Notes: generated by a model from the sequence alone, not told the origin. 64,000 bases of DNA from an uncultured SAR86 cluster bacterium (GCA_902515455.1 CABXUO010000002.1:3961-67960); one strand, 5' to 3'; shown: positions 9,456 to 28,860, counted from the first letter of the stretch. Translations and numbers: made by a program.

Positions 9456-9456
9456 T

Positions 9457-10419: not shown

Positions 10420-11526
10420 ATGAATCAATTTCAAACTTTAAAATCAGATTTGTCTCAATCACGAATTATTGACATTGATTCTCTATCTATCGCTGATGGT
10501 GAAATACAAGTTAAGGTGGAGAGTTATGCTTTTACAGCAAACAACGTAACCTATGGAGTAGCAGGTGACACCATTGGCTATTGGAATTTTTTCCCTGCAG
10601 GTAATAATCAAAATGATGAATGGGGCTGTATACCCATGTGGGGGTTTGCAAGAATTATTCACTCAGAAAACAAAGATTTAAAAATTGGAGAGCGACTTTT
10701 TGGTTATTTTCCAGCAGCTGATTCATTAATTCTGAATCCGATTAAAGTTTCTGATCAAAGTTTTGTTGATGGTAAGGAGCATCGCAGAGAGCTTCCGCCC
10801 GTTTACAATAATTATGTCAGACTTGCAGGAGAGCTAAATTATGATTCATCCATGGATGCAGAAAGAGCTCTTTTATTTCCACTTCATATTACAGCCTTCT
10901 GTTTATGCGACTCTTTAGCTGATGATTCGTATCATGAAGCGTCTCAAATAATTATTGTAAGTGCCTCAAGCAAAACGGCTATAGGTTTAGCGCAAGGTTT
11001 ATCCGACGTAGAGCATTCACGAAAAATAGTTGGATTAACGTCAAAAGCTAATTCTGAGTTTGTTGAAAATCTAGGTTGTTATGATGAGGTTATTTCTTAT
11101 GAAGGTCTTGATAAAGTAGATTACTCAGCAGGCTCTGTAATGGTTGATATGGCAGGCAATCGTGAAATTTTAGGCACTCTTCATGGTGAGCTTGGAGATA
11201 ATATGCTGAAATGTCTCACTGTCGGCATGACCCATTGGGATAATGAGACCACCGCAGAAGATGCTTTAGGTCAAGCAATGCTCAGAGATAGAACTGAATT
11301 CTTTTTTGCCCCAGCCCATATTCAAAAACGAATTGGAGATTGGGGGCACGATGGTTATGCTAAAAAAACAAATTTATTTATGGCCAAAAGAGCGCAACAA
11401 AGTAAAGATTGGATGGAGGTAAAAGAAATAGTTGGGTTAGAGAATTTTACTTCAATATATCAAGATGTTGTTTCAGGAAAAATTAATCCAAAAGAGGGAA
11501 TTATTGTAAGTCTTAACAATGATTAA
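10420..11526 (+). CDS. DUF2855-like protein (MDR/ADH-like fold, function unknown)
   Basis: 368 aa. VKVESYAFTANNVTYGVAGDTIGYWNFFPA..WGCIPMWGFARIIHS..GERLFGYFP matches my memory of DUF2855 proteins. Confidence 0.55.
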   Translation: MNQFQTLKSDLSQSRIIDIDSLSIADGEIQVKVESYAFTANNVTYGVAGDTIGYWNFFPAGNNQNDEWGCIPMWGFARIIHSENKDLKIGERLFGYFPAADSLILNPIKVSDQSFVDGKEHRRELPPVYNNYVRLAGELNYDSSMDAERALLFPLHITAFCLCDSLADDSYHEASQIIIVSASSKTAIGLAQGLSDVEHSRKIVGLTSKANSEFVENLGCYDEVISYEGLDKVDYSAGSVMVDMAGNREILGTLHGELGDNMLKCLTVGMTHWDNETTAEDALGQAMLRDRTEFFFAPAHIQKRIGDWGHDGYAKKTNLFMAKRAQQSKDWMEVKEIVGLENFTSIYQDVVSGKINPKEGIIVSLNND

Positions 11527-13171: not shown

Positions 13172-13561
13172 ATGGAGAATAAAATGAAAAATGTATTAAG
13201 AGTCATAGCAGGTGTTGCCGGAACTTTATTTTTTTTAAACGGATTGCAATGGATTATAAATCCTGCAAGTATAGCTGACTCATTGGGTATGCCCTTATTA
13301 GAGGGAGTGGGGCTTAGTACTCAAATAGGGGATCTTGGAAGTTTCTTTATCACTGTAGGTGCCATGACATTAATTGGAGCGATTACAACAACACGTCATT
13401 GGTTTTATGCACCATCTATGCTTTTGTTAGTTGCAGCTTTATATAGAACCCTTTCAACTATTTTATATGGTGCTCCATTTGTAATGTCTGCGATTGTTGT
13501 TGAAATTAGCGTAGGCCTCTTTTTAATATTTGCTGGATCAAGGATCGCGACCAAGGATTAA
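13172..13561 (+). CDS. Small integral membrane protein (hypothetical)
   Basis: 129 aa with about four hydrophobic segments. It starts immediately after the sulfatase stop. I recognise no motif. Confidence 0.5.
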   Translation: MENKMKNVLRVIAGVAGTLFFLNGLQWIINPASIADSLGMPLLEGVGLSTQIGDLGSFFITVGAMTLIGAITTTRHWFYAPSMLLLVAALYRTLSTILYGAPFVMSAIVVEISVGLFLIFAGSRIATKD

Positions 13562-13562
13562 A

Positions 13563-14618
13563 ATGATGAAACTGCTTAAATATATCTTAATTGTTGCTGT
13601 AATTGGCATTATCTTAGTGTCGGTTTTGACAAGGGTTCCAGATGTTCAAGATCGGCTTATGTTTAGATTTGTTCAAACTCTTGGCGGCACCAATGCTGAT
13701 CTAAATGACAATTCATTATCAGCTGTTGTATGTGGATCTAGATCTCCACTTCCATCTCCAGGAAGGGCACAAACGTGTGTCTTAGTAAATGCAGGCGGTA
13801 ATTATTACGTTGTAGATATTGGAGACGGTAGCGCAGTAAATCTTAATAATTGGAGAATAGACGCGAACAAGATTCGAGCAACTTTGTTAACTCATCTTCA
13901 CTCAGATCATATTTCAGACCTTGCAGATTTGCATTTAATGACTTGGATTAATACCTCGCATTCAAAGCCTATGGATGTTTATGGTCCTGCAGGAGTTGAG
14001 TTAGTAACTCAAGGTTTTGAGGACGCGTATCAGTTGGACTATCAATATAGACATGAGCATCATGGTGATGAAATAGCGCCAAAAGATATTGCTGGGTTTA
14101 ATCCTTTTCCGATAGATTTATCTAACCCAGTAATTATTGATGAAGATGGCTTGAAGGTGACAGCCTTCAAGGTAACTCATGATCCGATTGTTCCCGCTTT
14201 AGGATTTCGTTTTGACTATAAAGGGAGATCAATTGTTATTAGTGGAGATACTATTTACGACGAGAATTTAATCAAACATGCAAAAGATGCTGATGTTTTA
14301 TTTCATGAAGCACAAGCAAACCATCAATTGGATATTATGAGAAAAGCTTTAGCAAATAATGAGGGGCTAGTCACAATTCTAAATGACATTGAGACTTATC
14401 ATACAACACCTGTAGAAGCCGCTAAGGTAGCAAATTTGGCAAATGTAGATCATTTATTTTTTTATCATTTAACTCCAGCACCAAGAAATAATTTAACAGA
14501 AAGAATGTTTTTTCGAGGAGTTAATGACATTAGGAAAGAATGGAGCTCTACAAAAGATGGCACTATGGTTGTTTTACCATTAGACTCAGATGAAATAATA
14601 GTTACTGAGATAAATTAA
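13563..14618 (+). CDS. MBL-fold metallo-hydrolase (RNase Z/ElaC-like) with N-terminal membrane anchor
   Basis: HxHxDH motif in LLTHLHSDHISD. N-terminal helix LLKYILIVAVIGIILVSVL. ATG at 13563 lies 1 nt after the upstream stop with AAGGA upstream, so the track's start at 13530 is rejected. Confidence 0.75.
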   Translation: MMKLLKYILIVAVIGIILVSVLTRVPDVQDRLMFRFVQTLGGTNADLNDNSLSAVVCGSRSPLPSPGRAQTCVLVNAGGNYYVVDIGDGSAVNLNNWRIDANKIRATLLTHLHSDHISDLADLHLMTWINTSHSKPMDVYGPAGVELVTQGFEDAYQLDYQYRHEHHGDEIAPKDIAGFNPFPIDLSNPVIIDEDGLKVTAFKVTHDPIVPALGFRFDYKGRSIVISGDTIYDENLIKHAKDADVLFHEAQANHQLDIMRKALANNEGLVTILNDIETYHTTPVEAAKVANLANVDHLFFYHLTPAPRNNLTERMFFRGVNDIRKEWSSTKDGTMVVLPLDSDEIIVTEIN

Positions 14619-15406
14619 TGGATGTAAAAAATAAAAGAGTTGTTGTCACTGGTGCAGCTAGTGGTATTGGTAAGGCTCTATGTGAAGCTTTTTATCAAGC
14701 AGGAGCTCAATCACTTATTGCTGTAGATATGAATCTAGATGGTGCGCAAGAAACAGCTGATTCAGTTAATGGTATTGCCATTCAGGCGAATGTTGGAAAT
14801 GAAAAAGACATTATCAATGTGATCAAAAAAGCAGATGAGCACGTTGATGGCACAGACATTTTTTGTTCTAACGCAGGGATTGGTGGCGTGCCAGGATTTT
14901 TTGAAGTTGAAGCATCAGATTGGCAGAATATCTGGGATGTGAATGTTCAATCTCATATCTTCGCAGCCAAACATGTTTTACCTCAAATGATTGAAAGAGG
15001 GGAAGGCTATCTAGTTAATACATCATCAGCAGCCGGGCTTTTGACTCAGTTAGGAGCAGCAGGTTATTCAGTTACCAAAGCAGCTGCAGTAAGTTTCGCA
15101 GAATGGCTCAAGATTACTTATGGAGAAAAGGGGATTGGTGTTTCTTGTCTTTGTCCTCAAGCAGTAAGAACAGCAATGACTGCTCAAGGTCCCGGTGTTG
15201 CTGGTGTAGATGGAATGATGGAGCCAGATGTGGTTGCAAAAGAAGTTTTAAAGTGCATTGAAGAGGAAAAATTTTTAGTATTACCTCATATAGAAGTAGC
15301 TGAGTATGTTTCTAGAAAGGGTAATGACAGGGATAGATGGATTTCCGGAATGCAGAGACTGCAAAAGCAATATGAAGATTTTTTAACCCCAGTTGATATG
15401 AAGTAA
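14618..15406 (+). CDS. Short-chain dehydrogenase/reductase (SDR)
   Basis: Motifs TGAASGIGKA, NAGIG and YSVTK (YxxxK). 1-nt stop/start overlap with the MBL gene. Confidence 0.85.
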   Translation: MDVKNKRVVVTGAASGIGKALCEAFYQAGAQSLIAVDMNLDGAQETADSVNGIAIQANVGNEKDIINVIKKADEHVDGTDIFCSNAGIGGVPGFFEVEASDWQNIWDVNVQSHIFAAKHVLPQMIERGEGYLVNTSSAAGLLTQLGAAGYSVTKAAAVSFAEWLKITYGEKGIGVSCLCPQAVRTAMTAQGPGVAGVDGMMEPDVVAKEVLKCIEEEKFLVLPHIEVAEYVSRKGNDRDRWISGMQRLQKQYEDFLTPVDMK

Positions 15407-15419
15407 ACAAGGAGAAAAC

Positions 15420-16388
15420 ATGAAAACAAAAATTACAGAATTATTTGGTATAGAGCATCCTATTATTCAGGGTGGAATGCATCATGTAGGGTTTGCTGAA
15501 CTAGCTGCAGCAGTATCAAATGCAGGTGGCCTTGGAACTATAACTGGTCTGACACAAGGAACTCCTGAAAAGCTTGCAAATGAGATTGCTCGTTGCAAGG
15601 AGATGACTGACAAACCTTTTGCTGTAAATCTTACATTTTTGCCTTCATTAACTCCTCCAGATTATCCTGGATTGGTCGATGTAATTATTGGTGGAGATGT
15701 TCCAATCGTTGAAACAGCTGGAAGAAATCCTGCTGAATATTTGCCTGCTTTAAAGGAGGCTGGAATTAAAATTATTCACAAGTGCACATCGGTCAGGCAT
15801 TCATTAAAAGCGCAATCAATTGGATGCGATGCCGTCTCAGTTGATGGTTTTGAGTGTGGAGGCCATCCAGGTGAAGATGATATTCCTAATTTTATTCTTT
15901 TGCCAAGAGCAGCTGATGAACTAGAAATTCCATTTGTTGCCTCAGGTGGTATGGCTGACGCAAGAAGTTTAGTTGCTGCAATGGCTCTTGGAGCAGAGGG
16001 TATGAATATGGGTACTAGATTTATCGCAACTCAAGAAGCGCCAGTTCATCAAAATGTTAAAGATTCAATTGTTAATGCTTCTGAATTAGATACTAGATTA
16101 ATTATGCGCTCCCTAAGAAACACTGAAAGGGTTCTTAACAATGAAGCAGTTGAGCGTCTTATGGAAAAGGAGAGTGCTTTAGGGGATCAACTTACCTTCC
16201 AAGATATCGCTGACGAGGTTGCCGGAGTTTATCCAAAGATTATGCATGAGGGAACTATGGAGGCTGGTGCTTGGTCATGTGGGATGGTTGCGGGGCTGGT
16301 AAATGATATACCAACTGTTAAAGAGCTTATCGACGGAATTATGAATGAAGCTGATAGTATTATTGAAAAGAGATTAAGTAATTTTTAA
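15420..16388 (+). CDS. Nitronate monooxygenase / FabK-like FMN oxidoreductase (NMO family), copy 2
   Basis: 322 aa. Motifs HPIIQGGM, AAVSNAGGLG, GFECGGHPG and ASGGMADA. Clearly paralogous to 6176-7099. Confidence 0.85.
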   Translation: MKTKITELFGIEHPIIQGGMHHVGFAELAAAVSNAGGLGTITGLTQGTPEKLANEIARCKEMTDKPFAVNLTFLPSLTPPDYPGLVDVIIGGDVPIVETAGRNPAEYLPALKEAGIKIIHKCTSVRHSLKAQSIGCDAVSVDGFECGGHPGEDDIPNFILLPRAADELEIPFVASGGMADARSLVAAMALGAEGMNMGTRFIATQEAPVHQNVKDSIVNASELDTRLIMRSLRNTERVLNNEAVERLMEKESALGDQLTFQDIADEVAGVYPKIMHEGTMEAGAWSCGMVAGLVNDIPTVKELIDGIMNEADSIIEKRLSNF

Positions 16389-16404: not shown

Positions 16405-17358
16405 TTATATTAATATTCCACTTACTCTATCGATCAACCAGAAAAAGCCCATGCCACCTAAAATTAATGAGGTAAAAGTGGCTGATTGTTTGTAAAAGTT
16501 AAATTTTTGCGAAAGCCATATAACTGATCCAAATATAGGGACTAACAAAAGCTGACCTGCTTCAATACCCAGGTTAAAGAATAGTAAAGAGAGTAGCAGC
16601 TGCTCATTACCGATACCAATACCCGTCAAAGCATTAGCGAACCCCAGTCCATGCAATAATCCAAAGCCAAAAGCAACAATCCAAGGCGTAGATTGATATT
16701 TTTTACTTTCACTGACCTCTAAACCCAGGTAAATAATAGTAAGTGCAATTATTGCCTCTACAGTTGCTTGTGGAAGTGAGACTAGCTCGAATACTGATAG
16801 ACCTAAAGTAATGCTGTGTGCGAGGGTAAATGCAGTAATTGTTTTTACAGCATTGAAAAAACCTGAAATTAAAAAAAGCAGTCCTAAGATGAAAAGAATA
16901 TGGTCATTTCCACTCATCAGATGATCAATGCCTAGGGTGAAGTATCCAATAGGATAAACCTGCTCTTGAAAGGGAATCTCTATCGATGATCTCTTAAGGT
17001 TCATAAGGCCTTCAAACACCTCTCCGTTGGAATGGGTAATTGTTATCAAGGCATCTGTGAGCAAGCTTAAATTGTTTACTGAAATTATTTGACCTTTTAA
17101 AGAGCTCTCACAAATTAAGGATATTCTTTCAACTAAATATTTCCCCTTTTGACTGGGAAGTTGACTATTTCTCTCACAATTATCAGGGAAAAAAACTTCT
17201 GCTCTTGCACCAATGTTTTTTATTGGATACATCCAGCTAACTTGATATTCATTATTAGCAAGCTCATCTACAACCAAGTGGGCCGGATTAAACTCATGAG
17301 AGAATAATGCAGTTGAATAAAAAAGAATGACTAATGATTTAGCAAGTTTGTAAATCAT
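16405..17358 (-). CDS. HupE/UreJ-family metal permease with extended N-terminal extracytoplasmic domain
   Basis: 317 aa. Signal-like N-terminus, then an approximately 140-aa soluble region, then GIDHLMSGNDHILFILGLLFL plus several hydrophobic helices typical of HupE/UreJ. TAATG stop/start overlap with the upstream PPIase-like gene. Confidence 0.6.
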   Translation of the reverse strand: MIYKLAKSLVILFYSTALFSHEFNPAHLVVDELANNEYQVSWMYPIKNIGARAEVFFPDNCERNSQLPSQKGKYLVERISLICESSLKGQIISVNNLSLLTDALITITHSNGEVFEGLMNLKRSSIEIPFQEQVYPIGYFTLGIDHLMSGNDHILFILGLLFLISGFFNAVKTITAFTLAHSITLGLSVFELVSLPQATVEAIIALTIIYLGLEVSESKKYQSTPWIVAFGFGLLHGLGFANALTGIGIGNEQLLLSLLFFNLGIEAGQLLLVPIFGSVIWLSQKFNFYKQSATFTSLILGGMGFFWLIDRVSGILI

Positions 17359-18158
17359 TAGAACTTATAATTTGGATTGATAATAACCCTATATTGAGAT
17401 TTTATTTCATTAATATATTGAGCAATAGCTTTATCTTGAGCCTCTGAAAGATAGTCTTGCTGTACCTTTATTAGAACTTTTTCTAGAGGGGGAGAAAATC
17501 CACTTTTAACTTCTTTCAACAATACTATGTGATATCCAAAAGCAGATTCATGAGGCCCAGACCACTCATTTACAGGAAGATTTTTAATCGTAGAGAAAAA
17601 TAATTCTCCAAAATTTTTTTTAATTTCATTTGCGCTATTTTGATAAAAGTTTTTTCCTAAAAAATATGGATCTCCCTTTAATTCCACTCCATTGGTTTGA
17701 TAATTGTTGAAAGCTTTAGTCGCTCTTTCTTTTGCGCTAGATTCTTTTGAAAAATAATGATGAGAAAACGAATATGTTGCAGGAACATAGTAGCTGCTTT
17801 TATTTTGATCAAAAAATTTTTCTAATTCTTCTTGAGAGGGGTCATCTGGTACAGTTTCTTGTTTTAAGAAAGTAATTTTTTGAGCTAATCTTCTTTTAAT
17901 GATTCTATCTTCCTCATCTAAATTTAAGAGCAGAGCTTCCCTATATAAAATCTCCTCTTGAACAAAGTTATTGATAATGTTGACGATCTCTTCATCATTT
18001 GGAGGCCTGCCAACTTGGGACTTCCAAGCCGACAGCAGACTGGTTAACTCTTGATCTGAAATATAAATATCTTTTGAGTCTTGTTCAGAATTAAATCCAA
18101 TATCAAGAACAAAGATTAATAAACCAATTAAAAAAAATACAATTATCCTAAGGCTCAC
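17358..18158 (-). CDS. Membrane-anchored parvulin (PpiC)-type peptidyl-prolyl isomerase-like protein
   Basis: 266 aa. N-terminal helix IIVFFLIGLLIFVL and C-terminal parvulin-like SGPHESAFGYHIVLLKEV. It starts 15 nt downstream of the DUF3604 gene. Confidence 0.6.
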   Translation of the reverse strand: MSLRIIVFFLIGLLIFVLDIGFNSEQDSKDIYISDQELTSLLSAWKSQVGRPPNDEEIVNIINNFVQEEILYREALLLNLDEEDRIIKRRLAQKITFLKQETVPDDPSQEELEKFFDQNKSSYYVPATYSFSHHYFSKESSAKERATKAFNNYQTNGVELKGDPYFLGKNFYQNSANEIKKNFGELFFSTIKNLPVNEWSGPHESAFGYHIVLLKEVKSGFSPPLEKVLIKVQQDYLSEAQDKAIAQYINEIKSQYRVIINPNYKF

Positions 18159-18173
18159 TACAAATCCTAAACT

Positions 18174-20264
18174 TTATAATGGAATAATATCTAAATCTTT
18201 TGATTCAGGTATATACCAAATCGGAGATGACCACGCTCGCTCTTGAATAGTTTCATGCAGGTCAGGCCTGGGCTTTTCTCCTGCCCTCAATGCGTCCCAT
18301 GTAGACCATCTGCAAGTCGGATTTTCTAGAACTCGAACATAATAAAAAGCTTTTACAGCAGGATCAAAATCTGGATCTATCCATTTAGTTTTGAGCTCTC
18401 CTGCTCCAACATCATTTGAAATGGAGCAATCATTGATATTTACGCGCGCACCATTATCAGGACAGCGATTAGTTAAAGGATCCACGGTTAGACCATCTGA
18501 GCATGCAACATCATAAACTTTTTCCTTTGGAGTTCCTGATGCAGTTTCAACCCATCCTTTAATAATTTGAACTCTTTGAAGAGGTGCTCCTAATTTATCC
18601 CGTTGAGCCCACACTAAAAATTGTGGTGTTTGATTACCTTGACTAAATAAATCAGCTCCCATAGTAACTCCTTTTGCATATGCATCTTCAACCATATCTT
18701 CAGAGTTCAAATCAATTGATTCCATATCAAAGCCGGCAAAAAACCTAACTGCCATCCTAGTTCCTGTTGTTGCGAATGTTTCTTTTCTTTTGAAGGCTTG
18801 AAAAATAGAATCCCGAGTATTTTCTTCAGCCCAAGCAACTGCCAATCCAGATGCACTCCATTGATCAAATCCTACATCAGCATAAGTCTTACCTTCAATC
18901 TGTTTTGTGCTCACTGGTTGATTGAAGTCTATTGAATATTGTGTAAGTTGGTCAATTCTATCTTGTGAAAGAGGCACACTTCCTCTTCCCATATCTGTGC
19001 CATCTAGGACACCAACTTTTGACCAATAATTATTTTCATCATAAGCACCTGCTCCAGTATGAGTATCACTGGATCCTATGAGACCAAATTTATAGGGATT
19101 GCCTCGGCCTTCCCAATCTAAAGTAAGTCCTCTTAAATATGCATCTCTCACATAGCCCCCTTGAGGCATGCTATAAGTAGGTGGTCTGCTGCCAACTCTT
19201 TTATCCATGATTTCAAAATCTGCCCATTCGTCATCTGGAGAGAGGAGTGGATGCGTATCAGATGTACCTTTAACTTGAGTCATTTCAACAACTGGCTCAT
19301 TTCTCATTCGCTTTTCAGCATATTCTTCGTTAATTGGATTACCTCTAAATGTTTCAACTTCAAACATTTGACCATTTGAGCCATTGCTGTTGTGAGGCAT
19401 CGCCAAAGAATCGACACCTTTATCTCTTAAATTATCCATCCATGTCCAAAGATCCTCTGGATTAATGGAATCAATTCTAGTCCAAGGTCTGATTGGCGCA
19501 TTTGAGGAGTTAAAAATAACATTTCTATGTAAATTACCTCCCTCTACATCTGTTGAGGTGGTAAATTCATACCCTATAAAAGTAGTAAATTTTCCAGGAT
19601 CATTGAATTCCTCAGCAGCATTTGCAACATCAGCCCATGCAGATCTATGCACATCATAATCAAAAGACTTCAGGGCTAATTGAATATTATTAGTTAACCA
19701 GGCACCAATATAATTTGGATTCCACCAAGGATGAGGTATTACTATTGCTTGTCTAACAACTGAACTAAAAAGGTCTGCTCTCTCACCAGTTGATTCGACC
19801 GTAACATTTTCAGGCCTATTCAAATTATGCATTGGTATAGTCCATTCATTTTTCGACATTTTTGATGAAGTATCAGCATAGTTTTCTATCATGCCCATGT
19901 AGAAACCATGATCAGTAACTGCGTAAAAATCTAATGGCTCTCTTAATTTCATATCAAAACCCAAGGGATGTTTAATTGCCCGACCAGTAGCAAACTTGTA
20001 TGCGTCATATGGAGTTGCAGTTACACCAAAAATATAAGCATCAAATGAATACTTTGTATGAACGTGCAGATCACCATAGTATGGATTTCTGAAGGGATTG
20101 GATGGAATATCAGTCTTATTTGATGAACTTTCGATTGAGAAATCTACTATCTCTAGGGCTGAATTACTCTGGAATATACTGAAGGAGTTAGTTGCATATA
20201 GATAAAATACAAGGGAGACAATAATCAATCCAATAAAAGATTTGCTTAATTTCATTTTTTCCAC
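18174..20264 (-). CDS. DUF3604-type protein (PHP-like metal-dependent hydrolase fold), exported; copy 1
   Basis: 696 aa with an N-terminal hydrophobic segment. Motifs YYGDLHVHT, DFYAVTDH, GYEFT, HRNVIF, PHNSN, GSSDTH, and C-terminal ERAWSSPIW. The family is recalled from memory. Confidence 0.65.
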   Translation of the reverse strand: MEKMKLSKSFIGLIIVSLVFYLYATNSFSIFQSNSALEIVDFSIESSSNKTDIPSNPFRNPYYGDLHVHTKYSFDAYIFGVTATPYDAYKFATGRAIKHPLGFDMKLREPLDFYAVTDHGFYMGMIENYADTSSKMSKNEWTIPMHNLNRPENVTVESTGERADLFSSVVRQAIVIPHPWWNPNYIGAWLTNNIQLALKSFDYDVHRSAWADVANAAEEFNDPGKFTTFIGYEFTTSTDVEGGNLHRNVIFNSSNAPIRPWTRIDSINPEDLWTWMDNLRDKGVDSLAMPHNSNGSNGQMFEVETFRGNPINEEYAEKRMRNEPVVEMTQVKGTSDTHPLLSPDDEWADFEIMDKRVGSRPPTYSMPQGGYVRDAYLRGLTLDWEGRGNPYKFGLIGSSDTHTGAGAYDENNYWSKVGVLDGTDMGRGSVPLSQDRIDQLTQYSIDFNQPVSTKQIEGKTYADVGFDQWSASGLAVAWAEENTRDSIFQAFKRKETFATTGTRMAVRFFAGFDMESIDLNSEDMVEDAYAKGVTMGADLFSQGNQTPQFLVWAQRDKLGAPLQRVQIIKGWVETASGTPKEKVYDVACSDGLTVDPLTNRCPDNGARVNINDCSISNDVGAGELKTKWIDPDFDPAVKAFYYVRVLENPTCRWSTWDALRAGEKPRPDLHETIQERAWSSPIWYIPESKDLDIIPL

Positions 20265-20363
20265 CCCTAAAGTTGTTGAAGACCAATTAATATGTCAATT
20301 GTAAGACTAAAAATGCAAGAATGCTTATACTATGTTTCTAAAAATTAAGAGCTAAATCTTAAA

Positions 20364-21725
20364 ATGATTAAATACTTCAAAAATTTTATGAGTAGGCGAA
20401 CAATATCTGCCAATATTCGAAATAAATTGATGAATACATTTTCCAGTTACGAAATTTTTAAAGATACTAGATTACAATCAGAAGCTTCAAGGCAAAATGA
20501 TCAAAGACCACATGAAGTTTTTTATTTTCATAAAGTTGACGATCCTTATTCACATTTAACCATTCAATCCGTTAAAAAACTTCAAACATCCTATGATATT
20601 AAGCTAAGGCCTGTTTTGGTGGGTAGTGAAAGTTTAGAGGCATTGCATGAACCAACTTTATACAATCATTATTGTCTTCAAGATGTGCAGCGAATTGCAC
20701 CATTCTATGGCATTGAATTTCAAGCAAAATCTTATCCAACTAAAGAGCTTGTCAGCCTGGCTAACTCAATTCTTTCTGCAGTTAATGATCAGAATTTTGT
20801 GGACATAGCTACCCAAGTAAGCTCAGCCTTGTGGCGAGGAGATTCTGTAACACTTGATGAGATTTCTTCCTCCTACTTCGCGACAACTAGCCAAGTTAAA
20901 GAGAAGTTAAAAATTGGGAACGAAATTAGAAATGGTAAAGGTTATTATTTTGGCTCAGCTTATTACTATGAAAAAGAACTTTATTGGGGCCTAGATAGAC
21001 TTCCATATTTAGAGGAAAGACTTACTGAGCTTGGAGCAAGAAAGAAATCTGAAAATAATGAAATATGCTCATTAAATCTTAAGGCTCCTAAAACTTTAGT
21101 TTCTGAGAAAAAAGTTAACCTTTATTACTATCCTTCATTAAACAGTCCTTATACCTTTGTCAGCACAAAAAGAATACGAGAGATTCGAGACGAGTACCCA
21201 ATTAACTTATTCATGAAACCAGTTTTGCCTATGCTCATGAGAAAGATGAATATACCAACTAACAAAGCAAAATATATTCTCTCAGATGCAGCTAGGGAGG
21301 GAAGAAGATATGGAAATGAAATGAAAATCATTCATTCTCCAATTGGAAATCCAGCAAGAAAGTCATATTCTTTGTTTCCTGCAATTGATAAGGCTGGAAA
21401 AGGCTTTGAATATATTGAAGCTTTGCTAAAAGCTTCCTTTCAAGATGGGATAAATATTGGCGATGATAATTTTTTAGAAAATCTGGTAACCAATTTAGAG
21501 CTCGACTGGGAATTGATTAAGAAAGATCTTTATTCAAAGCACTGGCAAAAAATACTTAAAGATAATGTTGAGGACATGTACTCTGGTAATTGCTGGGGTG
21601 TTCCAAGTTTTAAAATTACCGATGAGGACGGCTCAAACTCCTTCTTTACTTGGGGGCAAGATAGGATATGGTTACTTAAAGAAGAGATTTACAAACGTTT
21701 AGAGAAAAGCCATGAAAAATTATAA
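20364..21725 (+). CDS. Fused tandem DsbA-like / 2-hydroxychromene-2-carboxylate isomerase (kappa-GST-like) protein
   Basis: 453 aa. Two halves, each with an N-terminal beta-strand plus (D/S)PY(S/T) (VFYFHKVDDPYSHL; VNLYYYPSLNSPYTFV) and a C-terminal WG.DR motif (LYWGLDRL; FTWGQDRI). No CxxC and no signal peptide. Confidence 0.55.
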   Translation: MIKYFKNFMSRRTISANIRNKLMNTFSSYEIFKDTRLQSEASRQNDQRPHEVFYFHKVDDPYSHLTIQSVKKLQTSYDIKLRPVLVGSESLEALHEPTLYNHYCLQDVQRIAPFYGIEFQAKSYPTKELVSLANSILSAVNDQNFVDIATQVSSALWRGDSVTLDEISSSYFATTSQVKEKLKIGNEIRNGKGYYFGSAYYYEKELYWGLDRLPYLEERLTELGARKKSENNEICSLNLKAPKTLVSEKKVNLYYYPSLNSPYTFVSTKRIREIRDEYPINLFMKPVLPMLMRKMNIPTNKAKYILSDAAREGRRYGNEMKIIHSPIGNPARKSYSLFPAIDKAGKGFEYIEALLKASFQDGINIGDDNFLENLVTNLELDWELIKKDLYSKHWQKILKDNVEDMYSGNCWGVPSFKITDEDGSNSFFTWGQDRIWLLKEEIYKRLEKSHEKL

Positions 21726-23679
21726 TTATTTTTTTTTAGTAATTGTTCTTAGTTTTGTTGCATGTTCAGATCCCAATAATCTTGATCACTTTGCAGACGT
21801 CATTAAAGACCAGTCTTATGAGGATTTTCAGCTTCAATCAAGACCGCCTGCCAATCCTGACAAAAATGCGTATTTTGGTGATTTGCACGTTCATACTGCC
21901 AATTCTCTTGATGCATATACATTCGGAACAATTACATCTCCAACAGATGCATACCGATATGCTCAAGGAGATGCAATTTTACATCCATCAGGTTATCAAA
22001 TTCAGCTATCAAGACCTTTAGATTTTTATGCTGTTACTGATCATGCATATTTTCTGGGCCTTCTTAATGAAGCAGCCGATACCGCTTCAGAGTTTTCGAG
22101 ATATGAGGTTTCACAGCCGCTGCATGACTTAAATAATCCAGCTGGCACAGGCTTTATATCTCTTATGAAAAGAGCCAATCTTTTTAGACCTTTAGCTCGA
22201 TCAATTGTTGAAGGTATTGAAAATGAGGAAATTGACAGATCTCTTGTATCTAAAATTGGAAGAAGTGTATGGCAGGAAACAATTGAAGCTGCAGATAATG
22301 CATATAGACCAGGACTTTTTACTACTTTTGCTGGCTATGAATATACTTCTGGTACTGGTATATATGATAATTATTTACATCGAAATGTTATCTTTCGTAG
22401 CACTCAAAATTTACCCTTAAATCTTTTTTCTAGGGATGATCCTGATCCTGAAAAGCTTTGGGATTGGATGGATAGACTAAGAGAGAATGGAATTGAAAGT
22501 TTAGCGATACCTCATAACACAAACCTTTCTGGAGGGGCTGCATTTTCACTTTATGATTTTAATGGCGGCCCAATAGATCAAGAGTATGTTAAAAAAAGAT
22601 CTTTGAATGAGCCGTTGGTTGAAATTACCCAAACAAAAGGAACTTCTGAAACACATCCTTTCTTATCGAAGAATGATGAGTGGGCAGCTTTTGAAACAAA
22701 ATCTGGTGTTAAAGATGAGGAGCTTGTAAGTAATATTAAAGGTAGCTATGTAAGGGATGCATATTTACGTGGCTTGACTTTAGAGGAAAAAGGCATAGGT
22801 AACCCTTTTAAATTTGGCCTGATTGGATCAAGTGATACCCATGTTTCAGGCTCTTCTGAAAGTGAAGAATTCTTTTTTTCAAAAGCAGGACTATTGGATG
22901 GAGAGCCAGACTTAAGGGGCTCAATTCCTTTCAGTCGATTCTATGGAACATTTCTCAAAATTGCTCAGCCAGAAATGTTTAAAGAAGTAGATGGAAGAAA
23001 CTATTTTGCGGCAAGCACTCGTTTGATTCATTTTTCATCTTCTGGTCTAGCTGGAGTTTGGGCTGAGGAAAATACACGTGAAGCTATTTATGACGCTTTG
23101 CGTCGAAAAGAGACCTTTGCTACAAGCGGCCCACGAATGAAAGTTAGGTTTTTTGCAGGATATAATTTTGAAAATTTTCAGCTTAATGATCTATCTCTGA
23201 TTCAAGATGCTTACAAAACAAGTATGCCCATGGGCGGAACGTTAAATATTGATTCAAATAAAAATCCAACTTTTTTAGTTTGGGCAATAGCCGATCCTCT
23301 GGGTGCTCCATTACAAAGGACTCAAATTGTAAAAGGATGGCTGGAAGATGGAGAGCATAAAGAAAAAGTTTTTGATGTGGCTTGCTCTGATGAAATGAAT
23401 GTTGATCCCAGTAATCATCGTTGTCCTGATAATAATGCATGGGTAGATTTAACTGATTGTTCAATTAGTGCAGATTCAGGATCTAGAGAGATGAAGGTTT
23501 TTTGGCAAGATCCCGAATTTAAAATTAATCAAAAAGCATTTTATTACGCTAGAGTTATTGAAAATCCAGTTTGCAGGTGGTCAACATGGGATTCGATCAG
23601 AAATGGTCAGAAACCAAGATCCGATATATCTTCAACAATACAAGAAAGAGCCTGGTCTTCGCCTATTTGGTTAAAGTGA
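21712..23679 (+). CDS. DUF3604-type protein (PHP-like), probable lipoprotein; copy 2
   Basis: 655 aa. N-terminus FFLVIVLSFVAC is lipobox-like. It carries the same motif set as copy 1 (YFGDLHVHT, DFYAVTDH, GYEYT, HRNVIF, PHNTN, GSSDTH, ERAWSSPIW). 14-nt overlap with the upstream gene. Confidence 0.65.
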   Translation: MKNYNYFFLVIVLSFVACSDPNNLDHFADVIKDQSYEDFQLQSRPPANPDKNAYFGDLHVHTANSLDAYTFGTITSPTDAYRYAQGDAILHPSGYQIQLSRPLDFYAVTDHAYFLGLLNEAADTASEFSRYEVSQPLHDLNNPAGTGFISLMKRANLFRPLARSIVEGIENEEIDRSLVSKIGRSVWQETIEAADNAYRPGLFTTFAGYEYTSGTGIYDNYLHRNVIFRSTQNLPLNLFSRDDPDPEKLWDWMDRLRENGIESLAIPHNTNLSGGAAFSLYDFNGGPIDQEYVKKRSLNEPLVEITQTKGTSETHPFLSKNDEWAAFETKSGVKDEELVSNIKGSYVRDAYLRGLTLEEKGIGNPFKFGLIGSSDTHVSGSSESEEFFFSKAGLLDGEPDLRGSIPFSRFYGTFLKIAQPEMFKEVDGRNYFAASTRLIHFSSSGLAGVWAEENTREAIYDALRRKETFATSGPRMKVRFFAGYNFENFQLNDLSLIQDAYKTSMPMGGTLNIDSNKNPTFLVWAIADPLGAPLQRTQIVKGWLEDGEHKEKVFDVACSDEMNVDPSNHRCPDNNAWVDLTDCSISADSGSREMKVFWQDPEFKINQKAFYYARVIENPVCRWSTWDSIRNGQKPRSDISSTIQERAWSSPIWLK

Positions 23680-23692: not shown

Positions 23693-24496
23693 ATGAGTAA
23701 GTCAAAAAATAATCTTGCACTTGTCACAGGCGCCTCTGACGGAATAGGAGCTGAATTCGTAAAAATTTTAGCAAGTCGAGGATATGATTTAGTTCTTGTT
23801 GCTCGTCGTGAAGAGAAACTTAAGGAGTTAGCAGTTAAATTGACCGATGAATTTGGGATCAGTTGTACTGTTATGGCAACAGATTTATCAGAGCCTAAGG
23901 CAGCTCAAAGTTTGTTCACTCGAGTCGAAGAAAGAGGCTTACAAGTAAATTTTTTAATCAATAATGCAGGACTTCTTCACAATGGATTTTTTACAAAAAT
24001 TAGCCTTGAAGCTCAAGAAAAAATGATTCAAGTTAATGTCATGGCGCTGACCACTTTAACTCATTTATATGCAGACAATATGTCCTCTAATGGAGGCGGG
24101 CATATACTTAATGTCGCTTCACTGGCAGGTTGGATGGCTATTCCAAATCAGAATGTTTACGCTGCATCAAAAGCTTATGTTGTATCTTTTTCTCAAGCAT
24201 TATCAAATGAAATGATTGCTTCAAATAGTGGGGTTAAAGTAACAGCATTATGCCCTGGTTATACAGCTACAAAAATGATGGATAATCCTGACCAAGGTGC
24301 CACTCTTCGCATTCCATCAAGTATGATGATGTCGGCTAAAGATGTTGCTGAGATTGGCATAAAAGCATGTTTTGCAGGCAAAGATATTGTAGTTCCAGGT
24401 CTTGCTAATAAGTTCACCACTATCATCACTCGTCTCTTTTCAAAATCGTTAATAACAAAGATTTTTGGTTCTTTCTACCGTAAGAATATGCACTGA
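23693..24496 (+). CDS. Short-chain dehydrogenase/reductase (classical SDR)
   Basis: Motifs TGASDGIGAE, NNAG and YAASK. Confidence 0.85.
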   Translation: MSKSKNNLALVTGASDGIGAEFVKILASRGYDLVLVARREEKLKELAVKLTDEFGISCTVMATDLSEPKAAQSLFTRVEERGLQVNFLINNAGLLHNGFFTKISLEAQEKMIQVNVMALTTLTHLYADNMSSNGGGHILNVASLAGWMAIPNQNVYAASKAYVVSFSQALSNEMIASNSGVKVTALCPGYTATKMMDNPDQGATLRIPSSMMMSAKDVAEIGIKACFAGKDIVVPGLANKFTTIITRLFSKSLITKIFGSFYRKNMH

Positions 24497-24527
24497 AAAG
24501 TTAGAATTATTTTGCTAAGGTTTTCAT

Positions 24528-25508
24528 ATGAGCGAACAAGCTATTAAAAAAATACTTATAACTGGAGCTAATGGATTCATTGGTGGATCATTGATGAGTT
24601 ATTATCAAAATAATGGTCAAGATGTTGTTGGCGTTGATCTTATTGGTAATGGTGACAATATTATAGAGGGTGATATATCTCAGCCAGAAACAATTAATCA
24701 GCAGCTACAAGAATGCGATGTGATTATTCACACAGCTGCTTTGGTCTCTAATGCAATGCAAGATTCCGATATGTGGCGAGTTAATGTCTTAGCAACCCGT
24801 AACTTAATTCAAGCAGCAAAAGAGCATAAAGTTAGACGTTTCGTTCAAATTTCATCAATAGTCGCTTACGGAAATTCTGCAGAAGGTGAGTTAGATGAAA
24901 CACATCCTGTGCATGCCGATGGTGGAAGCTATGTACTGACAAAACTAGCCTCAGAGCATGTTGTCTTAAGCGAGCAGGCTAATGATGATATAGAAGTAGT
25001 AATCATTCGACCAGGAGATGCATATGGTCCAGGTAGTCGTCCTTGGATTATTGCTCCATTGGAAGCAATTGCTAAAAATCAGTTTATGTTGCCCGAAAAA
25101 GGAGCGGGATTTTTTAGACCTATATATATTGATGATTTAGTTAGAGGTATCGCAATGGCATCGAGCCATCCAGATGCTGATGGCGAAATTTTTAATTTAT
25201 CTTGCGAGGGTTATATGTTTACCAAAGACTATTTCACCCCTCACTACCAATGGTTAGGTAAAAAGCGACCCATGGTAGTTTCGACCAACCTAGCTTTAAA
25301 AATCTCAGCCATAGCATCAAAATTAGCCGATCTTATGGGCAATCTGAATGAAGCCTCGCCATCAACAGTCAAACAGCTTTCAACTAAGAGTTGGTTTTCA
25401 ATTAAAAAAGCAGAACGAGTCCTTGGATGGAGGCCTGAAATTTCATTTGAGGAGGGCATGAAAGTAACTCATGAGTGGGCTCAGAAGGAAGGATTAGTAG
25501 GCAAATAA
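24528..25508 (+). CDS. NAD-dependent epimerase/dehydratase-family (extended SDR, 3-beta-HSD-like) protein
   Basis: 326 aa. Motifs ITGANGFIGGSL and YVLTK (YxxxK). Confidence 0.8.
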   Translation: MSEQAIKKILITGANGFIGGSLMSYYQNNGQDVVGVDLIGNGDNIIEGDISQPETINQQLQECDVIIHTAALVSNAMQDSDMWRVNVLATRNLIQAAKEHKVRRFVQISSIVAYGNSAEGELDETHPVHADGGSYVLTKLASEHVVLSEQANDDIEVVIIRPGDAYGPGSRPWIIAPLEAIAKNQFMLPEKGAGFFRPIYIDDLVRGIAMASSHPDADGEIFNLSCEGYMFTKDYFTPHYQWLGKKRPMVVSTNLALKISAIASKLADLMGNLNEASPSTVKQLSTKSWFSIKKAERVLGWRPEISFEEGMKVTHEWAQKEGLVGK

Positions 25509-25632
25509 TTTACGTAATTACTTTATAAACCTCAATTTATCATTGATTTTTTGATCACGAAAAAGGCTATACTTATGTATATAAGTAGATCTTTATGCGT
25601 TATTAAATTTTAATTATGACTTGGTGAAATCA

Positions 25633-27249
25633 ATGCGTCTGTGGAATGGATGGGGAAATGAAAATAGTGAGCTAACTATGGAGCTTAATGACGGTCTTCG
25701 AGCGTTATTAGAAGCTTTAGTAGGGCCAGGAACTTCACTTAATCAAGCAACCTTAAAAGAGGTAATTTCTAACGTACCCACTTCTCGTCTCGATGACCAT
25801 ACTCTAATTAAAACTGATCCGGAAACACGAGTACGACATGCGCGAGGTCAGAGTTTGCCAGATTGGTTAGATATGCATAGCGGCAATATTGATACATTTC
25901 CTGATGGCGTTGCATTTCCAGAATCTACAGAGCATGTAAGAGAACTTCTTGCTTATGCTAGAGAGAATGACTTAGTTGTGATTCCTTATGGTGGAGGAAC
26001 ATCAGTTGTTGGTCATATAAATCCTATGAAGAGCGACAGACCAATATTAACCATAGATATGGGAAATATGAGTTCTTTATTGAGCATTGATACTGAAAGT
26101 CAACTGGCTACTTTTGGAGCTGGAACTCCAGGTCCTGTCGTGGAAGAAGCTCTGAAAGAACATGGCTATACATTAGGTCACTTTCCACAATCCTGGGAGC
26201 TATCTACTTTAGGGGGATGGGTGGCAAGTCGATCAAGCGGTCAACAATCTCTTCATTATGGCCGCATAGAAAACATGTTTGCTGGGGGAATTATCGAAAC
26301 TATGAATGGCACCATGACAATTCCCACCATCCCAGCATCTTCAGCTGGTCCTGATATTCGTGAGATGATTCTTGGCTCTGAGGGCCGCATTGGTATTATT
26401 ACCGAAGTAACTGTACGGATAACACCTTTGCCTGAGGAAGAAAAATTCCAAGTGATCTTTTTTCCTTCTTGGCAAATTGGTATTAACGCTGCAAGAGAAT
26501 TGATTCAACAGCGAGTTGCATTGTCTATGGTTCGATTAAGTAATCCACTTGAGACAACGAGTCTATTATATATGGGTGCAGGAAGTGATACTAGTGGAGT
26601 GGTTGCACTGGAGAAATCCTTATCTGAAAAGGGTATTGGTGAAGGAAAAGTGATGATGACATTTGGAGTTACTGGCTCAGCTCGTCATTGCGAAACTGCA
26701 TATCAACTTGCAATTGATCATTGTGCTGCCCTCGGTGGTTTTGTAGATCAGTCTGGTCTTGGAGAGAACTGGGCTCATGGTCGATTCCGTGCTCCATATC
26801 TTCGTGACCCCCTTGGTGCAGAGGGATATATAGTAGATACCATGGAGACGGCAGTTGATTGGTCAAAAGTTTCTGAAGCTGCAGAAAATATAGAAGAAGC
26901 AATTCGAACTGCATTAGATGACGAGGGTGAAAGAGTTCATGCTTATACGCATTTATCTCATGTCTATGGCCAGGGATCGAGTATTTACACTACTTATTTG
27001 TTTCGCATAGGTGAAAGTTATGAGTTAGGAAAGAATAGATGGATGAAATTAAAAAAAGCTGGTGCTGATCAGATTGTCGCCCATGGTGGTACCATTAGTC
27101 ATCAGCATGGTGTTGGAAGCGATCACAAGAACTATCTTGCTGAAGAAAAGGGTGAGTTTGGCATCGCTGCAATTCATAGCTTATGCAAGCAATTTGACCC
27201 CTATGGACAAATGAATCCTGGGAAATTACTCCCTGACAATGAGCAGTAA
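25633..27249 (+). CDS. FAD-linked oxidase of the alkyl-dihydroxyacetone-phosphate synthase (AGPS)-like subfamily
   Basis: ATG at 25633; the track's TTG at 25621 is less likely. RLWNGWG opening, [53 protein letters not shown] and [11 protein letters not shown] parallel human AGPS blocks ([71 protein letters not shown]) as I recall them. Confidence 0.7.
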   Translation: [538 protein letters not shown]

Positions 27250-27255
27250 GCTATC

Positions 27256-28848
27256 ATGAATGGATTTACTAATCGTGCGCAACTTCTATCTAAAATGCGC
27301 AATGGTGAGCATTTAGATTGGGATATTATTGTTATTGGTGGGGGTATAACAGGAGCAGGTATTCTTCGTGAAGCACGACGTCAAGGTTACAGGGCGTTGT
27401 TACTAGAGCAACAAGACTTCTCATGGGGTACCTCTAGTCGCTCATCAAAAATGGTTCATGGAGGTTTGAGATATCTTGCTTCAGGCGATATAAAACTTAC
27501 CAAAGAGTCGGTGCAAGAAAGACAGCGCCTATTGAAAGAGGCTCCTGGATTAGTCGATCCAATCTCTTTTTATTTCACTTTTAGAAAGGGTAAATTTCCA
27601 GGTCGCATAGCTATGAAGATTATTTTAACTATTTATGATTTTTTTGCTGGAGCTCAAGATAATAGATTCTGTAACAATGAGGAATTACTAGAGCGTTTTA
27701 AAGGCCTGGATGATAACAAACTTCAGGGAGCAAGCTGTTATACAGATGCTATGGTGGATGATTCGAGATTAGTTCTCCGTGTATTGCAAGACAGTATTGA
27801 TGATGGCGGATATGCGCTAAATTATACTAAAGTAGAAGATCTCTTATTAACAGATGGCCGTGTTTCTGGAGTAAGCATTCAAGATAGAGTTCATTCTGGC
27901 TCAATTCATTTAAATGCCCCAGTTGTTATTAACGCTACTGGAGCTTGGGCAGATAGACTTCGAAATGTTGTTAATAACGAGACTCGAATTAGACCGTTGC
28001 GTGGCAGTCACATTATTATTGCTAAATCTTTATTTCCAATATCCGATGTTATGACTTTTTTGCACGTTGATGACAAGCGAGGTGTTTTTGTTTACCCATG
28101 GGAGGGCACAACAGTTATTGGAACCACAGATATAGATCATAATGAAGATATAGACATTGAGGCTGGCATCTCCGATCAAGAAGTGGATTACTTGCTAAAA
28201 GCTTTTAATAGTCAATTTCCAAGTAATTCACTTAAACGAAGTGATGTGCTATCAACTTGGTCCGGTGTTCGGCCTGTTATTGGTGCAGAAAAAAGTAAAG
28301 ATCCTTCAAAGGAACGACGAGATCATGCTGTTTGGTCTGATAATGGATTAATCACTGTAAGCGGTGGCAAACTTACAACTTTTCGGTTGATCGCATTAGA
28401 TGCTCTGGCTGCGGCTAAGGATAATCTTCCTGCAGCCAAAGAAATTACAGATGACCGTGTATTTTTGACTCCAAAAGTTTCTGCCGAGACCCTATCACCA
28501 AAAAATATTAGCTGGGCTCAACGATTACTTGGAAGATATGGTGAAAAAGCAATTGAACTTTTAAATGAAAGTTCAAAGGAGGAACATGACAATCTTGATG
28601 CAACTGAATTTTCATTAGCTGAATGTAGGTGGGCAATAAAGTATGAGGCAGTAGAACATTTAGATGATTTGATGCTGCGAAGAACTCGTTTAGGCATGTG
28701 TCTACCAAATGGTGGCAGCACTCTTTATCCAGCTTTAAAAGAATTATTTTTATCCAATCACAGCTGGGACGAAGAACGGTGGCAAAAAGAGGTAACTCGT
28801 TATGAAAAAATTTGGAAACAGTATTACAGTCTTCCAAGCAATACTTAA
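27256..28848 (+). CDS. FAD-dependent glycerol-3-phosphate dehydrogenase/oxidase-like protein
   Basis: 530 aa. Motifs VIGGGITGAGILREA and SSRSSKMVHGGLRYL are typical of the GlpD family. Confidence 0.8.
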   Translation: MNGFTNRAQLLSKMRNGEHLDWDIIVIGGGITGAGILREARRQGYRALLLEQQDFSWGTSSRSSKMVHGGLRYLASGDIKLTKESVQERQRLLKEAPGLVDPISFYFTFRKGKFPGRIAMKIILTIYDFFAGAQDNRFCNNEELLERFKGLDDNKLQGASCYTDAMVDDSRLVLRVLQDSIDDGGYALNYTKVEDLLLTDGRVSGVSIQDRVHSGSIHLNAPVVINATGAWADRLRNVVNNETRIRPLRGSHIIIAKSLFPISDVMTFLHVDDKRGVFVYPWEGTTVIGTTDIDHNEDIDIEAGISDQEVDYLLKAFNSQFPSNSLKRSDVLSTWSGVRPVIGAEKSKDPSKERRDHAVWSDNGLITVSGGKLTTFRLIALDALAAAKDNLPAAKEITDDRVFLTPKVSAETLSPKNISWAQRLLGRYGEKAIELLNESSKEEHDNLDATEFSLAECRWAIKYEAVEHLDDLMLRRTRLGMCLPNGGSTLYPALKELFLSNHSWDEERWQKEVTRYEKIWKQYYSLPSNT

Positions 28849-28860
28849 AATGAGGTTATC

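Follow-up and report, generated by a model that had tools for sequence, protein, structure and literature searches.

The window analysed here is a stretch of 64,000 nucleotides from an uncultured SAR86 cluster bacterium. It contains two DUF3604 genes, and we hold with moderate confidence that their products are exported, two-domain, PHP-like hydrolases, which represent old paralogs, are anchored in two different ways and are served by helpers encoded in a cassette. Copy 1 (18174..20264, minus strand; 696 aa as listed) and copy 2 (21712..23679, plus strand; 655 aa, a predicted lipoprotein) match PF12228 from end to end (E = 3.9e-224 and 1.6e-220; 745.9 and 734 bits against a gathering score of 20.4 bits; model positions 3-591 and 1-589), which confirms the family and the strands assigned to the two ORFs by an earlier reading of the sequence alone (the sequence-only reading). 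When compared with PF12228 as a whole, both copies are ordinary members, with nothing different in their length, export signals or conserved residues, all of which are typical. The family is large (8,465 clusters at 50% identity; E <= 1e-3) and abundant in ocean metagenomes, where one copy-1 ortholog sequence was found in 629 index blocks; in the literature searched, DUF3604 was named in a single paper, where Chlamydia trachomatis CT_425 is annotated with it. The analysis leads to a testable assignment of DUF3604 as a predicted metallo-phosphoesterase of the PHP type that is exported and has a conserved cassette for folding and metal handling.

The sequence-only reading had placed both paralogs around a common control region at 20265..20363, the 99 bp between divergent genes. 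Copy 1 does border this gap. Its start is likely to be the ATG at 20255 (M4), giving a protein of 693 aa instead of 696 aa and a gap of 108 bp rather than 99 bp; a 99%-identical ortholog (P0121) is called from the M4-equivalent ATG, also at 693 aa, and the upstream GTG of copy 1 is embedded in a Shine-Dalgarno-like GGGGTGG. Copy 2, however, does not reach the gap, as a 453-aa ORF coding for a tandem DsbA-like (HCCA-isomerase-like) protein (20364..21725, plus strand; PF01323 on aa 256-442) lies in between. The start of copy 2 overlaps the end of this ORF by 14 nt, and copy 2 comes second in an operon headed by the DsbA-like gene. The gap thus separates copy 1 from the DsbA-like gene, and a control region shared by the paralogs is not supported. 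When the gap was compared across relatives, it could be aligned with that of the closest one, L089, but with no other; in two close relatives (L005 and L090) it holds an inserted GST gene and unrelated intergenic sequence. No promoter-like site was scored inside 20265..20363, and the inverted repeats found there are short, AT-rich and no better than chance, none being notable.

In the segments aligned by eye, about half of the residues had been estimated to match between the two copies, and BLASTP gave 320/648 identities (49%; E = 0); the blocks ACSD..VDP....RCPDN, DCSIS, ENP.CRWSTWD and ERAWSSPIW were found in both. Yet a DUF3604 tree does not join them: the copy-1 clade and the copy-2 clade were each recovered in 60/60 bootstrap replicates and were sisters in 0/60, and each copy has closer matches in other phyla (55-62%) than in its partner (51%). 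On this evidence copies 1 and 2 are old DUF3604 paralogs, not recent duplicates. The proposal that they are isoforms born of a recent local duplication, differently anchored and co-regulated from a bidirectional region, draws on their divergent placement only 1.4 kb apart, a layout that recurs in the close SAR86 relatives L005-L008, L089 and L090, and on the difference in anchoring. We consider it very improbable, given the separate and old clades, the closer other-phylum proteins, the position of copy 2 behind the DsbA-like gene, the GST gene and unrelated DNA found in the gap of relatives, and the presence of one DUF3604 type only at each of the more distant SAR86 loci L001, L009, L011 and L036. 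A divergent pair of paralogs with shared cysteines is ordinary in itself; in many genomes, DUF3604 paralogs commonly lie in tandem or near each other. Relative to their syntenic counterparts, the dN/dS values are 0.06-0.07 for copy 1 and 0.10-0.12 for copy 2.

The two copies differ in their N-termini, as had been proposed, and the difference is conserved within each orthologous group. Copy 2 begins with MKNYNYFFLVIVLSFVA-C18, in which the lipobox LSFVA-C18 is followed by a Ser at position +2; a pattern scan found a lipobox in 112/119 copy-2 orthologs. With a signal peptide and a lipobox, copy 2 is a predicted lipoprotein, and because residue +2 is a Ser it would probably reside on the outer membrane. 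Copy 1 begins with MKLSKSFIGLIIVSLVFYLYA followed by T, that is, with a basic segment and then a hydrophobic h-region of about 15 residues, and no cysteine; a Cys-free hydrophobic N-terminus is present in 119/120 copy-1 orthologs. This N-terminus is predicted to be a Sec signal peptide or a signal anchor, by which copy 1 would be released from, or kept at, the inner membrane. Among 94 diverse DUF3604 representatives, 24 carry a lipobox and 53 a Sec-like signal, and only two have an RR motif. The family thus appears, from its N-termini, to be almost always Sec-exported, which makes an oxidising compartment plausible for its members.

The cysteines of the C-terminal region had been counted as five and taken as a sign of disulfides. 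The conserved block holds four, C588, C601, C613 and C651 in copy 1 (18312..18503, minus strand; codons checked) and C558, C571, C583 and C621 in copy 2 (23383..23574, plus strand), in both cases within a C-terminal beta-sandwich. Copy 2 owes its fifth cysteine to the lipobox (C18), and the mature forms of both copies have exactly four. All four are invariant in a deep subfamily (CCCC in 97/99 close relatives), but are absent from about half of 93 diverse representatives, among which the patterns were CCCC in 31, ..CC in 7 and none in 50. Mature proteins of the CCCC class have 4 or 14 cysteines, those of the Cys-less class mostly 0, and where C1 is absent the C1-C2 loop is lost too. The idea of disulfides in an oxidising compartment keeps its plausibility, since the proteins are predicted to be exported and the cysteines come and go in pairs or all together, but as a property of a subfamily and not of the family. 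The pattern, behind which stand few evolutionary transitions, fits two disulfides without proving them; in the subfamily of the two copies, these would probably join C1 to C2, across a short inserted loop, and C3 to C4.

The DsbA-like gene upstream of copy 2 was considered as a disulfide-forming partner of DUF3604 and rejected. The halves of the 453-aa protein are a diverged repeat (aligning at E = 2e-6), and its second half is related to DsbA and 2-hydroxychromene-2-carboxylate isomerase-type proteins through the PF01323 match; unlike DsbA thiol-disulfide oxidoreductases, however, it lacks both a CxxC and periplasmic export. No CxxC was found, the active-site positions being occupied by DDPYSH and NSPYTF, and neither a signal peptide nor a hydrophobic N-terminus was seen. 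This rules the protein out as a disulfide oxidase of the periplasm and hence as the maker of the putative disulfides. The gene is also found beside a copy-2-type gene at L001, L005-L009, L011, L089 and L090, and synthesis of copy 2 may be translationally coupled to that of this presumably cytoplasmic protein.

The remainder of the argument concerns the N-terminal domain, which in copy 1 spans aa 55-545 (18630..20102, minus strand) and was studied with an AlphaFold2 model, Foldseek and residue conservation. A full-length model of copy 2 (pLDDT 91.5, pTM 0.90) gave nothing at E <= 1e-3 in Foldseek, where the list was dominated by weak matches of the C-terminal domain to Ig-like beta-sandwiches (UNC119/RhoGDI; E about 1e-3), and for this reason the N-terminal domain was modelled separately (pLDDT 91.3, pTM 0.92). 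Searched against the PDB, its top six matches were all PHP-family structures (3e38, 7ug9, 3e0f, 3o0f, 2yb1 and 9etk), the best being 3e38 (E = 1.5e-4, prob 1.00; prob 0.96 for 7ug9), with low TM-scores to PHP structures (0.34-0.48). The relationship is a distant one at the level of sequence. PDB searches with a single sequence and with a 118-sequence profile returned 0 matches, the catalytic domain alone had no match to PHP in Pfam (PF02811 or PF13263) even at E = 10, and only one of 76 diverse DUF3604 members touched PHP_C, at E = 0.061. Comparison by hhalign of a DUF3604 profile with a YcdX/PolX PHP profile gave P = 1.1e-4, at a probability of only 56%, and P = 0.42 for the reversed control; since a third homolog search for the PHP profile brought in mostly near-identical YcdX orthologs, the probability had risen only from 38% to 56%.

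The hhalign alignment sets DUF3604 residues colinearly on eight of the nine metal ligands of YcdX: H59/H61, D67, H111, H223, H268 and D375/H377 of copy 2 fall on H7/H9, H15, H40, H101, H131 and D192/H194 of YcdX. The ninth ligand, a Glu (E73 in YcdX), would correspond to E210 in copy 2 and E233 in copy 1, a placement made by motif and strand position only. The putative ligands of copy 1 are H67, H69, D75, H119, E233, H246, H291, D400 and H402, and the ligand positions are 93-99% conserved among 95 diverse sequences. The trinuclear site thus keeps a putative counterpart for each of its nine ligands, eight by alignment and the Glu by motif. Many other residues are invariant in DUF3604 and have no counterpart in YcdX (among them R224, E304, D322, R348, N269, N271, K309 and Q307), and the total of about 100 near-invariant polar residues argues for an active site.

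Set against the PHP superfamily (BVU_3505, PDB 3e38; YcdX, 1m65; RNase AM, 7ug9; Cv1693, 2yb1), DUF3604 has the motifs HxH, D/H, TDH, H, PH and SDxH in colinear order and, as in 3e38, a second, C-terminal beta domain; it differs in being exported, in being missed by PF02811, in its C-terminal domain of a putative disulfide type and in its many added invariant residues. Its catalytic domain, at about 470 aa, is also far longer than that of YcdX, at about 245 aa, and carries large helical insertions. From models and sequences, the catalytic domain looks like a PHP phosphoesterase. That the likeness is spurious, with DUF3604 either adopting a new fold or serving the envelope, without catalysis, as a binding protein or scaffold, would accord with the failure of the full-length model to find anything but Ig-like beta-sandwiches at the head of its list and with TM-scores below 0.5; the six PHP structures heading the N-terminal domain's matches, the colinear motifs with a negative reversed control and the near-invariant polar residues make it improbable. 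We return to DUF3604 as a Sec-exported enzyme of two domains, in which a large, insertion-rich, PHP-like (beta/alpha) barrel would hold a trinuclear metal site with nine ligands and invariant Arg and Lys residues, and whose most likely activity in the cell envelope is the hydrolysis of phosphoesters or of some other anionic ester. A functional precedent is Sb-PDE of Sphingobium sp. TCM1, a PHP-domain phosphodiesterase with a Sec signal peptide that acts outside the cytoplasm and is inhibited by thiols, for which an essential disulfide was suggested (PMC5460133). Sb-PDE belongs to a different family, however: it has 441 aa, matches PF02811 directly, and no accessory cassette was reported for it (PMC5460133).

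Such a cassette accompanies copy 1. A gene whose PPIase-like product is of the parvulin (PpiC) type and carries a membrane anchor at its N-terminus (17358..18158, minus strand; PF13145, Rotamase_2, E = 3e-14) is second in the cassette, 15 nt past copy 1, and is followed, with a 1-nt overlap with its stop codon, by a third gene, for a HupE/UreJ-2 membrane protein (16405..17358, minus strand; PF13795, E = 7.5e-43). The latter has a signal peptide, His21, a periplasmic domain and a transmembrane domain with H146xxxG150xD152H153; across 25 DUF3604-linked homologs, conservation reaches 90% or more at H21, H146, G150, D152, H153, H181, E201, H236 and E266. The Pfam match, the HxxxGxDH motif and the His as first mature residue place the protein in the HupE/UreJ-2 family, with transport as its predicted activity. 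As described, HupE-type proteins import into the cytoplasm, a direction of no obvious use to an enzyme in the periplasm. In 80 genome loci, the most frequent neighbours of DUF3604 genes were the PPIase-like gene (23/80) and then the HupE-like gene (20/80). The cassette recurs in four phyla, with neighbours across Gamma- and Alphaproteobacteria, Acidobacteria and Acidimicrobiia, and roughly one locus in four, no more, carries it; a natural fusion of HupE_UreJ_2 to DUF3604 (P0268) supports a functional link between the two. TonB-dependent receptors, also considered as conserved partners, were found at 10/80 loci, probably the background for these taxa, and were set aside. Copy 1 would be co-transcribed with the membrane-anchored parvulin-like chaperone and the metal-handling membrane protein; once copy 1 has been exported by Sec, these two would, we infer, fold it and provide its metals.

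Cu and Ni are bound by those HupE/UreJ-2 proteins that have a capture domain with an N-terminal His (PMC12537917), and the cassette HupE has the same architecture, including the conserved first mature His, as the "anglerase" permeases (Ang-1/Ang-2; RbAng-1a, PDB 9GCE; PMC12537917). Neither 9GCE, the solved Ang-1 domain, nor any other PDB chain matched the periplasmic domain of the cassette protein by sequence. PMC12537917 and the parts of its supplements that were covered do not mention DUF3604 as linked to these permeases, and the DUF3604 cassette may explain part of the neighbours of "unknown function" reported around HupE/UreJ-2 permeases. We put forward only tentatively a wider proposal, that DUF3604, the parvulin-like protein and HupE/UreJ-2 form an undescribed, phylum-spanning periplasmic system, in which a Sec-exported, trinuclear PHP-type hydrolase relies for its metal loading on a dedicated foldase tethered to the membrane and on a metal-capturing permease with an N-terminal His; SAR86 would have two ancient versions of the enzyme, copy 1 at an inner-membrane-proximal layer and copy 2 as a lipoprotein at the outer membrane. 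If true, marine phosphoesterases that act outside the cytoplasm could gain a new class.

The choice of substrate, to which the analysis found no clue, is where a PHP- or amidohydrolase-like fold could part from PHP chemistry. The enzyme might act on something other than phosphate (an amide, a sulfate or carboxyl ester, a lactone) or in redox reactions, with the accessory genes as general envelope factors. DUF3604 is too diverged from PHP for a link by HMMER, has many invariant residues beyond those of YcdX, occurs in fusions to cytochrome c and SnoaL, and lies, in SAR86, in a neighbourhood rich in sulfatase, GST, SDR, MBL and NMO genes and not in phosphate genes. Nevertheless, the counterparts of the nine trinuclear-site ligands are kept, one of them by motif only, and to our knowledge the characterised PHP enzymes are all phosphoesterases, so that we regard another chemistry as a real but unlikely prospect. 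The activities of PHP enzymes are also discussed in PMC5460133. Phosphoester hydrolysis stays the preferred assignment for both copies. The fusions of DUF3604 to cytochrome c (P0249) and to SnoaL (P0246) hint at other chemistry.

The segment 16405-23679 of the window is formed by two operons lying back to back, as judged from its ORFs and their Pfam matches. On the minus strand, a DUF3604 gene (PF12228; copy 1, 18174..20264, 696 aa) is followed after 15 nt by a gene for a PpiC/parvulin-type Rotamase_2 protein (17358..18158), which overlaps by 1 nt the gene for a HupE_UreJ_2 membrane protein (16405..17358). The plus-strand operon opens with a DsbA-like gene (20364..21725, 453 aa), the end of which overlaps by 14 nt a second DUF3604 gene (copy 2, 21712..23679, 655 aa); downstream, likewise on the plus strand, come genes for an SDR, an epimerase, a FAD-linked oxidase and a DAO-type dehydrogenase. 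The sequence-only reading had seen a 99-bp control region shared by the two paralogs, having overlooked the DsbA-like gene; the gap (20265-20363) therefore parts copy 1 from the DsbA-like gene and not from copy 2. The start of copy 1 is most likely the ATG at 20255, because a 99%-identical ortholog has its start called there and the GTG is part of an SD-like GGGGTGG. The G+C content of the window is 36%, and its nearest homologs carry the name SAR86 cluster bacterium. A PHP-like assignment for DUF3604 and the three-gene cassette represented by the copy 1 operon are more useful results than the paralog pair.

No relative of DUF3604 was detected by HMMER in the PDB or in Pfam PHP. AlphaFold gave confident models of full-length copy 2 (pLDDT 91.5) and of the copy 1 catalytic domain (pLDDT 91.3). 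A structure search with the full-length model yielded nothing beyond weak matches of the C-terminal domain to beta-sandwiches; with the copy 1 catalytic domain alone, the six best PDB matches were all PHP proteins (3e38, with E 1.5e-4 and prob 1.00, then 7ug9, 3e0f, 3o0f, 2yb1 and 9etk), at low TM-scores of 0.34-0.48. The DUF3604 profile also matched a YcdX/PolX PHP profile (P 1.1e-4; reversed control, P 0.42), and in the profile-profile alignment, for which the YcdX sequence was checked against 1m65, eight of the nine metal ligands of YcdX line up with near-invariant residues of DUF3604; the ninth, a glutamate, has a counterpart by motif only. In copy 1 the putative ligands include H67, H69, D400 and H402. 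Together, the structure matches, the profile alignment and the placement of the ligands lead us to regard DUF3604 as a putative PHP-like domain, strongly diverged and rich in insertions, followed by a beta-sandwich. Which residues of YcdX bind metal is taken from background on PHP enzymes and the discussion of a PHP phosphodiesterase paper (PMC5460133), as is the view that all PHP enzymes known to be characterised are phosphoesterases. Structure-based databases may already class DUF3604 as PHP-like. A precedent for a Sec-exported PHP enzyme, to which DUF3604 may be likened, is a phosphodiesterase that is also thiol-sensitive (PMC5460133). DUF3604 annotation is carried by CT_425 of Chlamydia trachomatis (CTL0684, 622 aa), in which a transposon insertion at the last codon is tolerated (PMC11925237); this was the only mention of DUF3604 in the literature searched. 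Among the cluster representatives, DUF3604 is fused with two cytochrome c domains in P0249 (778 aa), which could hint at redox chemistry, and with SnoaL-like domains in P0246 (908 aa).

When all ORFs in 80 genome loci were clustered without prior bias, the top recurrent neighbours of DUF3604 were a PPIase-like protein (23 loci) and a HupE-like protein (20 loci), usually encoded directly downstream on the same strand. Loci with this cassette come from Gammaproteobacteria, Alphaproteobacteria, Acidobacteria and one Acidimicrobiaceae MAG, with Phenylobacterium, Blastomonas and Hyphomonas among its carriers, and the cluster representative P0268 (927 aa) is a natural HupE_UreJ_2+DUF3604 fusion. The HupE partners conserve the first mature histidine, an HxxxGxDH motif and additional His and Glu residues. 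Binding of Cu and Ni has been shown for HupE/UreJ-2 proteins whose periplasmic domain has an N-terminal His, and the commonest neighbours of their genes code for proteins whose function is unknown; the main text and those portions of the supplements that were consulted make no mention of DUF3604 (PMC12537917, 2025). For the HupE partner in the window, no sequence similarity could be detected between its periplasmic domain and the Ang-1 domain of solved structure. Mechanistically, the cassette partners would fold a Sec-exported DUF3604 metalloenzyme and supply its metals. We found no description of the cassette, or of the PHP-like assignment, in the literature searched.

Among 94 diverse DUF3604 representatives, a lipobox (24) or a Sec-type hydrophobic leader (53) dominates and an RR motif is found in only two, which points to the family crossing the membrane unfolded, via Sec; metals would then be inserted, and any disulfides formed, outside the cytoplasm. 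The differing anchors noticed earlier in the two copies are conserved, with a lipobox in 112/119 copy-2 orthologs and a Cys-free hydrophobic N-terminus in 119/120 copy-1 orthologs. The cysteines had been miscounted: four (C1-C4, in the C-terminal part), not five, are common to both copies; copy 1 has these only, and copy 2 has the same four plus that of the lipobox. Nor are they conserved across the family, a condition that the sequence-only reading had itself named as counting against it. Scored at the four positions, 31 of 95 diverse sequences have all four (CCCC), seven have the last two (..CC), seven show other patterns and 50 have none; when C1 is missing, a short loop with C2 is usually deleted. 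All four are present in 97/99 closer relatives (identity down to about 32%), and mature proteins have four or 14 cysteines in the CCCC class and mostly zero in the Cys-less class. This distribution fits a deep subfamily with two putative disulfides, C1-C2 (C588-C601 in copy 1, C558-C571 in copy 2) and C3-C4 (C613-C651 and C583-C621). The 14-cysteine subgroup has room for five further pairs in the mature protein.

The product of the DsbA-like gene (20364-21725, plus strand) is built of two DsbA-like halves in tandem, which align with each other at E 2e-6, and is also HCCA-isomerase-like. It has DDPYSH and NSPYTF where CxxC is expected and its sequence contains neither a CxxC nor a signal peptide, which rules it out as the oxidase that would form the putative disulfides in the periplasm. 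Several SAR86 genomes keep this gene tightly coupled to one of the copy-2 type, and the overlap with copy 2 suggests that the two are translationally coupled.

That the copies are paralogs is borne out by end-to-end PF12228 matches in both, by the C-terminal motifs, found in each, and by a pairwise alignment (49% identity over 648 residues). In a tree of 99 DUF3604 sequences built by neighbour joining (the window and 80 named genomes; 619 columns) they fall in different clades, each recovered in 60/60 bootstrap replicates; the two clades are exclusive sisters in 0/60. Copy 1 is 62% identical to a Rhodobiaceae protein and both are 55-56% identical to an Acidimicrobiaceae protein, vs 51% to each other in the same comparison. 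The separate clades and the higher identity to proteins of other taxa argue that they are old paralogs, or that one was gained laterally, and against isoforms of recent origin. Both are under purifying selection (dN/dS 0.06-0.12). The sequence-only reading was thus partly right in observation and partly supported in interpretation: the paralogy, motifs and anchors stand; the gap flanks, cysteine count and recent isoforms do not. DUF3604 paralogs in tandem or close together, of which one is often ~50% and the other ~35% identical to the window copies, also occur in other phyla (loci L015, L016, L017, L023, L025, L028, L041, L050, L052, L057, L071, L075 and L076). The multi-copy arrangement is a habit of the family, common in other phyla, and the window pair is an ordinary case.

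Divergent juxtaposition of the two types was found only in close SAR86 relatives (L005-L008, L089 and L090), some of which carry an additional GST gene at the junction, where their intergenic DNA is unrelated; SAR86 genomes farther off have a single DUF3604 type per locus. The GST gene (280 aa) lies between copy 1 and the DsbA-like gene in L005-L008 and L090 and is missing from the window and L089, and is therefore a presence/absence polymorphism in the supposed control region. No gene of the syntenic block has diverged more than copy 2 (21712-23679), which has 71-72% amino acid identity to L089:2574-4553 and L005:3689-5659 (dS about 1.7-2.0), vs 82-98% for its neighbours (dS 0.4-1.2). The dN/dS of copy 2 stays at 0.10-0.12 despite this divergence, which suggests that recombination has replaced the allele, rather than that the gene is decaying. 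Downstream, a plus-strand string (23693-30411) encodes an SDR, an NAD-epimerase, a FAD-linked oxidase (GlcD/alkyl-DHAP-synthase-like), a DAO+DAO_C glycerol-3-phosphate-dehydrogenase-like protein and an FGGY kinase; synteny in relatives holds for the first four, and the string may represent a pathway for lipids or polyols. On the other side, a conserved plus-strand block (7102-16388), in large part syntenic with L005 and L089, is SAR86 catabolic gene content of a typical kind: three GSTs, DUF1330, DUF2855, a sulfatase, an MBL-fold hydrolase (top NCBIfam match GntH-like, under cut-off), an SDR and an NMO/FabK-like protein.
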